20,094 nt of DNA. Origin: a virus. Lineage: Duplodnaviria > Heunggongvirae > Uroviricota > Caudoviricetes. A program made the translations under genes and the position numbers. The DNA lies in IMG/VR virus record IMGVR_UViG_2563366990_000010, positions 1 to 20,094 of that record. One strand, written 5' to 3'. Below the pieces are notes generated by a model. That model searched no databases. It was not told the DNA's origin and was given only the letters and a program-made list of their open reading frames with translations. Shown here piece after piece: positions 14,442 through 16,369 of the stretch (position 1 is its first letter; each line of letters opens with the position of its first letter).

Positions 14442-14520
14442 CCTGGCCTGAGGCGTTCACAACGGCAGGAATTGCACTGGCGGTGGCGCTGGTGGAGTAT
14501 TCGATTTGCCGCTGGGGTTG
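14437..14520 (+). CDS. Candidate small membrane peptide, 27 aa (not in the supplied ORF track)
   Basis: ATG at 14437 overlaps the upstream stop (ATGA). Translation MTWPEAFTTAGIALAVALVEYSICRWG has a single hydrophobic helix; the stop codon lies inside the -35 of the downstream promoter. Confidence 0.3.
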
Positions 14521-14546
14521 ACGTAATTACTTATCCGGGATTATAT
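14517..14546 (+). promoter_or_regulatory. Candidate sigma-70 promoter for the first antirepressor gene
   Basis: TTGACG (14517-14522), 18-bp spacer, TATATT (14541-14546). Same architecture as the promoter at 15463-15492. Confidence 0.5.
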
Positions 14547-14602
14547 TCTTCGCACGGTCGAGTTGGCCGTCGGGATTGGAACCCCGGATAGAGACCGCGA
14601 CA

Positions 14603-14628
14603 AACACACGCCGCGAGCGTGTTTTTTA
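14603..14628 (+). terminator. Leader terminator / attenuator-like hairpin about 55 nt downstream of the promoter
   Basis: Stem ACACGC / GCGTGT with loop CGCGA (14605-14621) followed by TTTTTTATT, located about 160 nt upstream of the antirepressor ATG. Confidence 0.5.
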
Positions 14629-14788
14629 TTGTCGTATGCACGCGCACATCTGAATTATGGTGGGGCGCATGGGGGAGCTGAAAAGCTCGCCGGTCGGTTT
14701 CCCGGTAGTTCCAACCCTGTGCGTCTCACCACCCGATGATTGGAACCTTACGGTGGTGATAGTTTAGAAACCACTAGAGGGCGTCATT

Positions 14789-15454
14789 ATGACAACTCAA
14801 ATCTCTGTTGAAACCATCTCCCCGATTACCCATAACCAGATTCTTGTTATTACCACCGAGCTTTTGGCACAACTTTATGGCACCGAAACTAATAACATCA
14901 AAGTGAACTATACGCGCAATGCCGAGCGTTTTGTTTGCGGGAAGCACTACTTCAAATTGGAAGGGGCTGAATTGCGGGAATTTAAGAACAAGGTTACTCA
15001 AAGTAACTTAGTTGCACCGCGTACAAAGCACCTCATCCTCTGGACAGAACGCGGCGCAGCCCGTCATGCAAAAATGCTCGAAACCGATCGAGCGTGGGAA
15101 GTATTCGAAAAACTGGAAGACTGCTATTTCAGCCTGGGAAAAACAATACAAACCGAACAGCAGTCGCAGATTCAGCCACAATTCACAGCCGAGGAAATCA
15201 TCCTCCTTTGCTACATGCAGCTCTGGATGGAAAAAGCCCAGAACATCAGCAAACACCTGTATCCCATTATGAAAGAGCTGAACTCCTCATACACGAACAA
15301 GCTGTATGACATTGCGTTTGAAACCATCTACATGGTGACGAAGAACAGAGACGCGCTACTGCGGGAGGCGGCACGGCTTGACCAGTCAAGTTTCGTTATC
15401 CAGCGGGCCAGACCAATGCTGAAAAGCCTGCGGGCAAGACAATTCGAGTTTTAA
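14789..15454 (+). CDS. Phage antirepressor-like protein, ORF6N-type N-terminal domain with a shared C-terminal domain, 221 aa
   Basis: The N-terminal region resembles ORF6N/KilA-N-type antirepressor domains; AGAGGG ribosome-binding site. The C-terminal 95 aa are about 65 percent identical to the C-terminus of the next gene. Confidence 0.7.
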   Translation: MTTQISVETISPITHNQILVITTELLAQLYGTETNNIKVNYTRNAERFVCGKHYFKLEGAELREFKNKVTQSNLVAPRTKHLILWTERGAARHAKMLETDRAWEVFEKLEDCYFSLGKTIQTEQQSQIQPQFTAEEIILLCYMQLWMEKAQNISKHLYPIMKELNSSYTNKLYDIAFETIYMVTKNRDALLREAARLDQSSFVIQRARPMLKSLRARQFEF

Positions 15455-15462
15455 GGCCAGAT

Positions 15463-15492
15463 TTGACAAATCCGCATTAGCGGGGATATATT
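15463..15492 (+). promoter_or_regulatory. Candidate strong sigma-70 promoter for the second antirepressor gene
   Basis: Consensus TTGACA (15463-15468), 18-bp spacer, TATATT (15487-15492). Confidence 0.55.
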
Positions 15493-15708
15493 CCGCTCCA
15501 TGGTGCTGAACACACCTTCGAAAGCGGAAACCGCGCCCGTCAGTCATGCGGATTTTTTATGTCCATTTTTCAGATATGGTCGGGTAGCGCGTATACCGAA
15601 AAACAGCCGCAAGGCTAAGGATGCGGGCCGAACTTTCGACGGTGTTCAAGTACCCGACCGCCCTGCTGAACACGGGGTGATCTGAACGAATCGAAAGGAC
15701 ATAAAACT

Positions 15709-16341
15709 ATGAGCACTCAACTTGTATTCCACAATGTTCAATTCCAGACCGTTCAACGAGATGGTCTACTGTGGTTGTCTGCCCCCCAAATAGCCAGCGC
15801 GTTACAATATGCAGATCAAAGCTCGGTAACACGCATCTATGCCCGTCACGCAGATGAATTCACAAACGGTATGACAGCCTCGGTCAAATTGACCGATCCT
15901 AAAGGGGACAAGCAAGAGACTCGCATCTTCTCATTACGCGGCGCTCACCTAATAGCGATGTTTGCTCGAACTCCAATAGCAAAAGAGTTTCGTCGCTGGG
16001 TATTGGATATTCTGGACCGTGAAGCTGAAAAAAGCGCTATACCGCCACAACCTCATATTCAGCCGCAATTCACAGCAGAAGACATCATCCTGCTCTGCTA
16101 CGTTCAACTCTGGATGGAAAAAGCACAACAACTCAGTAAACAGCTATACCCCGTCATGAGAGAACTGAACTCTGATTACTACGGGAAACTGTTTGATCTG
16201 GCCTACGAGACTCGTCATATAACCAACCGGACTCGCGACACATTGCTCCGCGAAGCAGCAAAACTTGATCCCGCCAACTATATGGTGCATAGGGCCAGAA
16301 GCATGCTGGCGCAACTACGGGCAAGACAATTTGAATTCTGA
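15709..16341 (+). CDS. Bro-N family antirepressor sharing its C-terminal domain with the upstream gene, 210 aa
   Basis: N-terminal Bro-N-like signature (LWLSAPQIASALQYADQSSVTRIYARHADEF); the C-terminal domain is paralogous to that of the 14789-15454 product. Confidence 0.75.
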   Translation: MSTQLVFHNVQFQTVQRDGLLWLSAPQIASALQYADQSSVTRIYARHADEFTNGMTASVKLTDPKGDKQETRIFSLRGAHLIAMFARTPIAKEFRRWVLDILDREAEKSAIPPQPHIQPQFTAEDIILLCYVQLWMEKAQQLSKQLYPVMRELNSDYYGKLFDLAYETRHITNRTRDTLLREAAKLDPANYMVHRARSMLAQLRARQFEF

Positions 16342-16346
16342 AACTA

Positions 16347-16369
16347 AAGGAGCTTCGGCTCCTTTTTTG
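16347..16369 (+). terminator. Intrinsic terminator after the antirepressor cassette
   Basis: Perfect 7-bp stem AAGGAGC / GCTCCTT with a TTCG tetraloop followed by TTTTTTGTT, 6 nt after the stop codon. Confidence 0.8.

Follow-up and report, generated by a model that had tools for sequence, protein, structure and literature searches.

Tandem antirepressor genes of a lambdoid Escherichia coli prophage are preceded by two structural classes of putative c4-type leader RNA

Introduction

The c4 antisense RNA of the immI locus of phages P1 and P7 is reported to control icd/ant, in work said to be that of Citron and Schuster from 1990 and 1992. In satellite phage P4 and phage N15, the CI RNA and CA RNA are processed leader RNAs that pair with complements on both sides of their own gene (as cited in PMC4825925), and they cause premature transcription termination. 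The RNA sRNA-Xcc1 is said to have been first reported by Chen and colleagues in 2011, from integron cassettes of Xanthomonas. Here, two adjacent genes annotated as antirepressors, ant1 and ant2, are described with their leaders on a stretch of 20,094 nucleotides of Caudoviricetes DNA (IMG/VR record IMGVR_UViG_2563366990_000010, positions 1 to 20,094; hereafter the window). Each gene and its leader, termed a cassette, very probably form a self-contained antisense RNA module, of the type of P1 immI (c4) or isrK-anrP of prophage Gifsy-1, that keeps the antirepressor gene silent.

In P1 and P7, pairing of c4 RNA around the ribosome-binding site represses the synthesis of Ant, and this is the basis of the heteroimmunity of the two phages (PMC8546580, PMC12197685). 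In Gifsy-1, the promoter PisrK drives transcription of isrK-orf45-anrP, and the long read-through RNA is translationally silent (Hershko-Shalev et al. 2016, PMC4825925). Short IsrK in trans was found to raise anrP translation more than 100-fold, and the compensatory pairs G28/C162 and G31/C159 were tested; a stable RNA, STnc1160, derives from the orf45 region, and its likeness to P4 seqA and CI was noted by the authors (PMC4825925). sRNA-Xcc1 has been treated as an HrpG/HrpX-controlled, possibly vesicle-delivered small RNA (sRNA), with five copies in a row in Xylella (PMC12189769); a study of APSE phages placed it before an ORF6N gene, with no tie to c4 (PMC7313666), and its position upstream of symE has also been noted. 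Neither an identity of sRNA-Xcc1 as a c4-type cis-encoded regulator nor a role of its family in antirepressor control is described in the literature found, coverage of which was incomplete.

The antirepressor genes and their setting

The window is part of a lambdoid prophage. The region of the tandem ant pair is 100% identical to E. coli 06-00048 (NZ_CP015229.1), in which it lies in the nin region, with replication genes on one side and ninB on the other. The RefSeq annotation of the region in this genome consists of just two coding sequences, an 'ORF6N domain-containing protein' and a 'BRO family protein', and the leader RNAs described below (isrK, C4 and sRNA-Xcc1) carry no annotation in it. 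The genes and the terminator that closes the pair are:

14789-15454, + strand: ant1, 221 amino acids; Pfam ORF6N (5.8e-21) and P22_AR_C; PHROG 377, anti-repressor Ant (1.2e-79)
15709-16341, + strand: ant2, 210 amino acids; Pfam Bro-N (3.6e-11) and P22_AR_C; PHROGs 245 and 5060, anti-repressor Ant
16346-16371, + strand: predicted intrinsic terminator closing the ant pair, from a terminator scan; 8-bp stem and T-run

Both products are antirepressors by annotation, with an ORF6N or Bro-N domain joined to P22_AR_C and matches to PHROG Ant families. A first-pass annotation of this DNA had described a shared C-terminal domain of about 65% identity ending in LRARQFEF behind distinct N-terminal domains, and this was borne out: 62 of the 96 C-terminal residues are identical (65%), LRARQFEF ends both proteins, and the N-terminal parts (ORF6N and Bro-N in Pfam) are unrelated, with just 22 identical residues. 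Comparison of the ant2 sequence to solved structures gave no match.

The same annotation had proposed an attenuator or small-RNA switch for each cassette, likened to the Arc/Mnt/sar control of P22 but with no visible regulator genes. The small-RNA switch and the self-contained nature of the cassettes were upheld; the leaders are not plain attenuators, as they hold Rfam RNA genes (C4, isrK and sRNA-Xcc1, all above their thresholds), and these are the regulators that had been missed. No small repressor open reading frames (ORFs) with a Pfam match and no arc/mnt-like genes were found in 14400-16450, and all Rfam RNA matches in the window lie on the + strand, as do the ant genes. P1/P7 immI c4 and Gifsy-1 isrK-anrP are thus closer analogues than P22.

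Leader of the first cassette

The window was scanned with Rfam covariance models at the curated gathering thresholds, followed by a permissive rescan at E <= 1. In what follows, a' denotes the loop of the second internal hairpin of an RNA and b' the single-stranded junction 3' of that hairpin; the a/b labels follow the layout, and the P1 convention in spirit, and are not necessarily the original P1 numbering. The features of the leader of ant1 are:

14518-14547, + strand: predicted promoter, TTGACG-18-TATATT; consensus scan, 10/12 matches
14554-14628, + strand: putative short IsrK-type leader RNA, with a 5' hairpin, b1 in the hairpin loop, a1 and an intrinsic terminator
14554-14627, + strand: isrK (RF01394); Rfam 54.9 bits against a threshold of 50
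14574-14583, + strand: b1 site GATTGGAACC, in the hairpin loop of the IsrK-type leader
14591-14597, + strand: a1 site GAGACCG, complementary to a' with one G-U pair
14606-14622, + strand: hairpin of the predicted intrinsic terminator of leader 1, with T-run 14623-14628; terminator scan
14653-14736, + strand: C4 antisense RNA (RF01695); Rfam 71 bits against a threshold of 45, full model 1-87
14695-14701, + strand: a' CGGTTTC, C4 hairpin-2 loop; complementary to 14591-14597 and 14767-14772
14708-14714, + strand: b' GTTCCAA, C4 junction; complementary to TTGGAAC at 14576-14582 and 14740-14746
14726-14759, + strand: predicted b2-displaying hairpin, TCACCACC at 14726 with GGTGGTGA at 14752; b2 GATTGGAACC (14738-14747) in its loop
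14767-14772, + strand: a2 site GAAACC, complementary to a'
14777-14781, + strand: ant1 Shine-Dalgarno sequence GAGGG; a2 ends 5 nt before it

The minimum-free-energy fold of the C4 RNA is identical to the family structure (z = -5.0), and the RNA has an ACCACC-like 3' tail. The complement of b', TTGGAAC, is the core of the GATTGGAACC repeat. The hairpin at 14726-14759 takes its 5' strand from the 3' arm and tail of the C4 RNA, and a downstream copy of the C4 5' arm supplies the other strand. A match to c4-a1b1 (RF03163) at 14541-14590 appeared only in the permissive scan (23.5 bits, below the threshold of 46.7); in relatives this family is matched above threshold. The a2 site, which stands 5 nt before the Shine-Dalgarno sequence here, overlaps it in relatives such as PA28.

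Several of these elements had been noticed in the first-pass annotation. The inverted repeat TCACCACC/GGTGGTGA is present and is the hairpin that displays b2. The two copies of GATTGGAACC, which prove to be b1 and b2, are likewise present, the first of them at 14574 and so 1 nt from its earlier placement. The two promoter sequences with 18-bp spacers also exist, the first lying 1 nt further right than had been given, and the leader terminators comprise the hairpin at 14606-14622 with its T-run and, in the second leader, a T-run that is again displaced by 1 nt. Taken as a whole, cassette 1 is an ordinary member of the P1 c4 / Gifsy-1 IsrK system.

Leader of the second cassette

The leader of ant2 was found to contain an RNA of a different Rfam family, with the following features:

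15463-15492, + strand: predicted promoter, TTGACA-18-TATATT; consensus scan, 11/12 matches; kept in close relatives
15499-15558, + strand: putative short leader RNA, with a GGTG/CACC hairpin holding b1, then a1 and CGG, then the terminator
15504-15513, + strand: b1 site TGCTGAACAC, in the loop of the GGTG/CACC hairpin; TGAACAC at 15507
15518-15524, + strand: a1 site TCGAAAG, complementary to a' and followed by CGG
15531-15535 and 15547-15551, + strand: putative leader 2 terminator, CCGCG with TGCGG, a weak 5-bp stem; T-run 15553-15558
15555-15567, + strand: candidate anti-Shine-Dalgarno (anti-SD) strand TTTTATGTCCATT, complementary to 15694-15706; inverted repeat I3, 13 nt, 92%
15578-15667, + strand: sRNA-Xcc1-family RNA (RF02221); Rfam 67.5 bits against a threshold of 53, full model 1-87
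15633-15639, + strand: a' CTTTCGA, sRNA-Xcc1 hairpin-2 loop; complementary to TCGAAAG at 15518 and 15691
15642-15648, + strand: b' GTGTTCA, sRNA-Xcc1 junction; complementary to TGAACAC at 15507 and 15667
15656-15682, + strand: b2-displaying hairpin of the minimum-free-energy fold; b2 TGCTGAACAC (15664-15673) in its loop, the 5' strand being the 3' tail of the sRNA-Xcc1-type RNA
15691-15697, + strand: a2 site TCGAAAG, overlapping the ant2 Shine-Dalgarno sequence AAGGA at 15695-15699

The repeats of this leader, TGCTGAACAC at 15504 and 15664 and TCGAAAG at 15518 and 15691, had been missed by the earlier annotation, which saw part of the arrangement and in cassette 1 alone. Judged from these complementarities, the arrangement that is truly conserved between the cassettes is b1/a1 ... 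a'/b' ... b2/a2, and the RNA of cassette 2 has a c4-type architecture, with a loop and a junction complementary to covarying upstream and downstream site pairs. Cassette 2 is therefore a variant of the known c4 system that is built on a different RNA family. Its RNA does not share the location of the founding member (an integron gene cassette), lying in the nin region of a lambdoid E. coli prophage. The fold of the sRNA-Xcc1-type RNA has z = -1.7, the first 80 nt of the leader matched no Rfam family even at E <= 1, and the CCGCG/TGCGG stem, unflagged by the terminator scan, was found to covary across the family.

The a and b elements of the two cassettes, read directly from the sequences, cross-match over 4 nt at most, and for this reason the cassettes should not cross-react. 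Duplex energies of the whole recognition region with the upstream sites were -30.8 (cognate) against -17.9 (non-cognate) and -28.6 against -15.2 kcal/mol.

Covariation across antirepressor loci

From 118 viral loci encoding relatives of ant1 and ant2, 36 clusters of upstream sequences were obtained, and their representatives, together with three annotated records, gave 39 loci that were scanned with Rfam. In 28 of these, a match to C4, c4-2 or sRNA-Xcc1 ends approximately 40-50 nt before the antirepressor start codon, and the C4 matches inspected have an isrK match about 25 nt upstream. One and the same ORF6N antirepressor family follows a C4 RNA in some loci (the window, L052, L100) and an sRNA-Xcc1 RNA in others (L047, L072, L073), indicating that the RNA classes are interchangeable.

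Ten C4/c4-2 leaders and ten phage sRNA-Xcc1 leaders, all distinct, were each found to possess their own a'/a1/a2 and b'/b1/b2 set, with a2 homologues covarying with a' in nine C4-class leaders besides that of the window. Examples of a' and its a1/a2 partner in relatives are TCCTTTTTC / GAAAAAGG, CTACTTG / CAAGTAG, CTATCGC / GCGATAG and CATATGTG / CACATATG. The stems that display b2 covary as well, being TCGCCACC/GGTGGCGA in L100 (C4 class), and CCGCCAG/CTGGCGG in L016 and TCACCAG/CTGGTGA in L073 (sRNA-Xcc1 class). The check that had been suggested for the leaders, covariation across related loci, thus came out in favour of the RNA switch: the a/b sites and the RNAs covary, and the leaders are conserved in relatives. 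Matrices of longest complements were discarded as noisy, with relatives sharing b', and anchored and permutation tests were used instead.

A Gifsy-1-like locus (L111) links this arrangement to published mutations. Its isrK and C4 matches have the same spacing as in cassette 1, and its 'orf45' region is a C4 match of 75.1 bits. With the isrK start of L111 as position 1, b1 (TTGGCGT) includes G28 and G31, and by spacing and polarity we infer that the compensatory pairs G28/C162 and G31/C159 of Gifsy-1 correspond to b1:b' (b' ACGCCAA); L111 differs by small indels, and the match is limited to C18, G28, G31 and the 3-nt antiparallel spacing.

Reach of the sRNA-Xcc1 class and its leader partner element

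A scan for the hairpin-1 core motif of sRNA-Xcc1, with one genome per species, identified at least 120 loci in Xanthomonadales, Pasteurellaceae, Neisseria, Enterobacterales, Azospirillum, Desulfovibrio, Oxalobacter and others. Of the 116 distinct RNAs, 97% are matched by a perfect complement of 7 nt or more within their own leader upstream, compared to 27% of non-cognate pairs; between the RNA and the start codon, the values are 40% and 9.6%. In an alignment-free test, both sites were defined by an anchor, a1 comprising the 8 nt that precede the conserved CGG and a2 those that precede the GA of the Shine-Dalgarno sequence. These sites were identical at 6/7 positions or more in 24% of 94 leaders, compared to 1.6% of non-cognate pairs, with 5-7 of 7 identical in all ten E. 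coli phage-type leaders. The reverse complement of an a1 6-mer occurs in the 3' half of the RNA in 89 of the 94.

Ten proteins encoded downstream of sRNA-Xcc1 in other bacteria were examined: two with Phage_pRha (one of them also with P22_AR_C), and others with Bro-N and P22_AR_C, ORF6N, AntA, KilA-N, and P22_AR_N with P22_AR_C; the remainder are a SymE toxin of a Xanthomonas-type cassette and two proteins without a match. For the integron-type copies of the Xanthomonadales loci (within L123-L242, e.g. L180, L140, L163 and L188), the downstream genes encode SymE-type toxins or a family starting MSTFDSDDLETTGYFLPEDSQLRL, for which no Pfam match was found.

The 5' part of the sRNA-Xcc1 leaders has a conserved design, consisting of a b1 hairpin, an a1 site running into a near-invariant GCGG, and a terminator with CCCG in its loop (alignment A1). 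Over the 49 sequences of this alignment, the helices of the element are 75.9% paired, compared to 34-45% when slid, with a covariation score of 0.374 against at most 0.154. A covariance model of this leader partner element, R1, gave 20 matches in 154 kb of phage loci, of which 19 lie upstream of sRNA-Xcc1 and one (L022) where Rfam reports no sRNA-Xcc1; no match precedes a C4 RNA. Over 770 kb of genome loci it gave 88 matches, with 86 at 29-160 nt upstream of an sRNA-Xcc1 core on the same strand and two stray. The element thus precedes 86 of 101 sRNA-Xcc1 sites, and 51 of 66 in loci outside the training set.

The GCGG after a1 and the CCCG in the terminator loop (15524-15527 and 15536-15539 in the window) are near-invariant across phyla. 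RNAalifold applied to A1 returned just an invariant CGG/CCG pairing, which would form a pseudoknot with the terminator and shows no covariation; alternatively, the partners of GCGG and CCCG may lie in the RNA itself, as the CCG of its hairpin-2 stem and the CGGG of its closing stem. A MAFFT alignment of whole sRNA-Xcc1 leaders (A3) had its variable loops out of register, and no pair count was drawn from it.

These results bear on whether the RNAs are independent trans-acting sRNAs on host genes (IsrK as an Hfq-binding RNA, sRNA-Xcc1 in HrpG/HrpX virulence) that stand before ant incidentally. Published accounts do treat sRNA-Xcc1 as trans-acting and virulence-associated (PMC12189769, PMC7313666), but the recognition loops covary with sites in the flanks of the RNAs themselves and the tie to antirepressor-type genes holds in distant taxa, which makes an incidental position hardly credible. 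On balance we favour the view that sRNA-Xcc1 is a second structural class of c4-type self-targeting leader RNA, extending from Enterobacterales to Xanthomonadales, Pasteurellaceae, Neisseria, Azospirillum and Desulfovibrio, and not a free-standing virulence sRNA. With its IsrK-analogous partner element it would gate antirepressor or toxin genes, and the stacking of modules with distinct recognition sequences would give a prophage several independent RNA immunity channels.

Tandem arrays

The exact ant pair of the window is rare: of 5426 E. coli genomes, 17 have it at 80% query coverage or more, as does a single phage record, phiSTEC1589-Stx1c. Tandem arrays of c4-type modules are common, with two or three modules in 8 of the 39 loci, and in the five arrays printed (L002, L004, L017, L056 and L071) the a/b sequences all differ among the members. 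The modules are mosaics in which RNA class, N-terminal domain and C-terminal domain assort independently, and the ant pair is therefore not a simple duplication.

Three modules were observed in a row in L002 (1477-3900), of the C4, sRNA-Xcc1 and sRNA-Xcc1 classes, with the first ant gene truncated. In L004 (Stx2a_F451, 690-2905), three ant genes, of which one is a pseudogene, lie beside int/xis. Group II intron domains (RF02001, 135 bits; RF01998) were identified directly downstream of the antirepressor gene in L016 (2081-2367), a viral contig.

Promoters and promoter-spacer repeats

Four promoter-like sites were found in 4 kb, compared to 5.1 in shuffled sequence, so that the cassette promoters, the best two of the four, are not significant by themselves. 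Their positions are conserved in relatives, that of cassette 1 being kept in 27 C4-class leaders and aligning with the promoter that precedes isrK in L111, the Gifsy-1-like locus. The PisrK promoter was tested in Gifsy-1 itself (PMC4825925).

In both cassettes, a sequence in the promoter spacer had been reported to recur in inverted orientation downstream, as an arrangement conserved between them. The sequences are present, as TATCCGGG at 14532 with CCCGGATA at 14583 in cassette 1, and AAATCCGCAT at 15468 with ATGCGGATTT at 15546 in cassette 2. By our estimate, 2 kb of sequence would hold about 1.8 exact 10-mer repeat pairs by chance, and repeats of this length are not significant alone; they gain meaning from complementarity to the RNAs and from covariation in relatives. 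In the C4 class, the spacer TATCCGGG(G) and the b1-hairpin arm CCCCGGATA are conserved (alignment A2, 27 leaders), the spacer being complementary to the 3' arm of the b1 hairpin (14532-14540 and 14582-14590 in the window).

The spacer repeats could be functional, either as half-sites of a protein operator or as a fold switch that distinguishes upstream-derived transcripts from those started in the cassette. The 9-bp helix between spacer and hairpin arm is 94.7% pairable in the 27 leaders, compared to 24-56% when slid, and all six variable pairs change solely to G-U in the + strand sense, which is suggestive of an RNA-level constraint on transcripts arriving from upstream. Furthermore, leader 2 folded as RNA with its promoter region forms a long nested hairpin that abolishes the terminator (z = -2.6). 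However, the changes in the C4-class helix are one-sided and wobble-compatible with no compensatory change, and shuffles pair equally well. In the sRNA-Xcc1 class a spacer/terminator complement of at least 6 nt was found in 5% of cognate and 7% of non-cognate pairs, a test in which the T-run picker may have mis-set the window's own row, and the feature is limited to close relatives. The spacer also lies upstream of the expected start site and is thus absent from the transcripts of the cassette itself; it could be relevant just to transcripts that arrive from upstream. A function for these repeats is accordingly improbable, and the arrangement reported as conserved is not supported as a functional one.

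Proposed mode of control

In the antisense RNA module that we propose, a sigma-70 promoter would start the leader and most transcripts would end at the leader terminator, yielding an RNA of 60-75 nt that carries b1 in a hairpin loop, and a1. Read-through transcripts would hold a structured RNA of 84-90 nt (C4 in cassette 1, sRNA-Xcc1 in cassette 2), which is possibly processed. In P1, excision of the equivalent RNA, reportedly by RNase P, leaves a form of 77 bases. Pairing of a' and b' with a2 and b2, between the RNA and the ant start codon, would block ant translation; a2 of cassette 1 adjoins the ribosome-binding site, and a2 of cassette 2 overlaps it. The short leader RNA, bearing the same sites, would compete for and titrate the antisense RNA, thus turning ant on as short IsrK does in Gifsy-1, and the Ant proteins would then inactivate phage repressors. 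As both the a/b sequences and the N-terminal domains differ, the two cassettes should be controlled independently. RNA family membership, the complementarities and their covariation are observed, and from these, by analogy with the described systems, we infer promoter activity, termination, RNA processing, the translational block, the decoy role and the function of Ant.

Several observations weigh against this proposal. Direct occlusion in cassette 1 is marginal, since a2 is just 6 nt long and ends 5 nt before the Shine-Dalgarno sequence. Cassette 1 also has no icd-like gene translationally coupled to ant in the manner of P1, its sole upstream ORF being of 36 codons and unconserved length. The C4 covariance model gave no match on 15578-15667 at E <= 1, and RF02221 lies outside Rfam clan CL00128, so that a shared origin of the two RNA classes is no more than possible. 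In Xanthomonadales, the integron-type members of the sRNA-Xcc1 family have the covarying upstream b1/a1/terminator with no clear a2/b2, and the downstream block may therefore not be universal in the family. Finally, duplex energies for the downstream targets do not separate cognate from non-cognate pairs; for this reason exact loop and junction matches, and not the energies, were used to judge orthogonality.

Three sub-models come into consideration, namely occlusion of the ribosome-binding site (P1), refolding with upstream-ORF coupling (Gifsy-1) and antisense-promoted termination (P4). It is possible, if somewhat doubtful, that the second of these is the principal mechanism. The read-through mRNA would then be silenced by its own fold (b1:b' in cis, and an anti-SD helix in cassette 2), the short leader RNA would refold it in trans, and ant translation would be coupled to a small ORF starting at the AUG in the C4 5' arm. 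Experiments on the homologous Gifsy-1 locus support this (PMC4825925), and the window has such an ORF, an analogue of orf45 of 36 codons (14657-14767) that ends 21 nt before ant1 and has an in-frame AUG pair 12 nt apart (14657 and 14669), as in orf45 of Gifsy-1. In cassette 2, the candidate anti-SD strand is complementary over 13 nt to the region from the Shine-Dalgarno sequence to the start of ant2 (15694-15706), and the helix is kept in a sub-lineage, with one compensatory change in L072 (TTTGTGTCC/GGACACAAA). On the other hand, across 15 leaders the ORF that starts at the C4 AUG has anywhere between 14 and 200 codons, and its stop often falls inside the RNA; conservation is thus at the level of the RNA and not of a protein or coding unit, which weighs against coupling as a general rule. 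Cassette 2 has no conserved upstream ORF, and the mean duplex energy of its anti-SD helix across the family is -7.4 against -6.9 kcal/mol, a weak difference. Control of this type is in any case compatible with the antisense block and not exclusive of it.

Control of the P4 CI / N15 CA type, in which the antisense RNA pairs with b1/a1 on the nascent leader and promotes termination so that little read-through mRNA is made, was raised by the Gifsy-1 authors (PMC4825925). In both classes a1/b1 lie directly 5' of the terminator, and in the fold of the window the GCGG after a1 can pair with the 5' arm of the terminator, which antisense binding could free. A GCGG/CCGC anti-terminator hairpin was rejected as a general feature of sRNA-Xcc1 leaders, for want of covariation with the terminator stem: GCGG stays the same beside the stems CCACC and CCAAC. 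Termination of this kind would also leave the conserved a2/b2 at the ribosome-binding site unexplained, and we consider it rather unlikely.

Neighbouring features

An HNH endonuclease gene (16457-17167; PHROG 374, 1.2e-65) was identified downstream of the ant pair, with a 46-codon ninB fragment at 16396-16536 (RefSeq 'NinB, incomplete') and full-length ninB at 17139-17540; the apparently split ninB looks like a homing-endonuclease insertion with target duplication. A sok antitoxin RNA (RF01794; 101.5 bits against a threshold of 59) was found at 19776-19947 on the + strand, overlapping the start of a small ORF at 19888-20094, and 19776-20094 is a hok/sok-type toxin-antitoxin locus directly after the Q antiterminator region. 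Matches to sok also lie near antirepressor modules in L037 and L077. No tRNA genes were found in a search of the window.

The late region of Shiga-toxin phages is laid out as Q, tRNA-Ile/Arg/Arg, SASA esterase and holin. The same order was observed outside the window, at 20392-22503 of L001, where a TerB-family gene and a DUF3927 gene occupy the place in which stx genes are expected.

Significance

Antirepressors decide when a prophage wakes, including in Shiga-toxin-type E. coli prophages, where induction drives toxin release and gene transfer. If ant genes are locked by programmable RNA pairs, as appears to be the case, it should be possible to predict which prophages silence each other (same a/b) and which cross-induce (different a/b). 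The c4 principle itself is old; the reassignment of sRNA-Xcc1 and the leader element are the concrete and testable addition. The former, if true, would change how matches to this family are read in plant and animal pathogens, where they are now discussed as a virulence or vesicle-delivered sRNA, and the latter would add a conserved RNA motif to the catalogue.

Comparison with known systems

The immI region of P22 (Arc, Mnt, sar) resembles the cassettes in that a small RNA acting at the ribosome-binding site of ant helps to keep this antirepressor gene off. Unlike here, sar of P22 lies on the opposite strand, and genes for two repressor proteins adjoin ant. P4 CI and N15 CA share with the cassettes a leader RNA with complementary sites on both sides of its own gene, but here the downstream sites lie at the ribosome-binding site.

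The sRNA-Xcc1 family (RF02221) includes the cassette 2 RNA (67.5 against 53 bits), and its Xanthomonas members share the leader of b1 hairpin, a1 and terminator with covarying sites. The cassette 2 RNA differs in lying in a prophage, directly before an antirepressor gene, with a2/b2 at the ribosome-binding site, whereas integron members precede SymE-type or unknown genes and are without clear a2/b2.

The Gifsy-1 locus isrK-orf45(STnc1160)-anrP has the same order of promoter, IsrK-type terminated leader, C4-family RNA and ORF6N-type antirepressor as cassette 1, and its tested base pairs would correspond to b1:b', as judged via L111. The a/b sequences of cassette 1 are different and its upstream ORF has 36 codons in place of 45; the published study (PMC4825925) does not describe the Gifsy-1 locus as a c4 system.

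P1/P7 immI differs in possessing an icd gene and an Ant1/Ant2 pair, which are absent here, and in being carried by a plasmid prophage and not in the nin region of a lambdoid prophage. Here, in addition, a short RNA ended by a terminator would carry a1/b1, and a2 of cassette 1 lies beside and not over the Shine-Dalgarno sequence. What is common to both is an antisense RNA with two recognition elements that shares strand and transcript with its target; its complementary sites form two sets, of which the first lies upstream and the second at the ribosome-binding region of a downstream antirepressor gene. In both, too, specificity shifts through covarying sites, as in P1/P7 heteroimmunity, and the RNA of cassette 1 is itself recognized by the C4 model at 71 bits.

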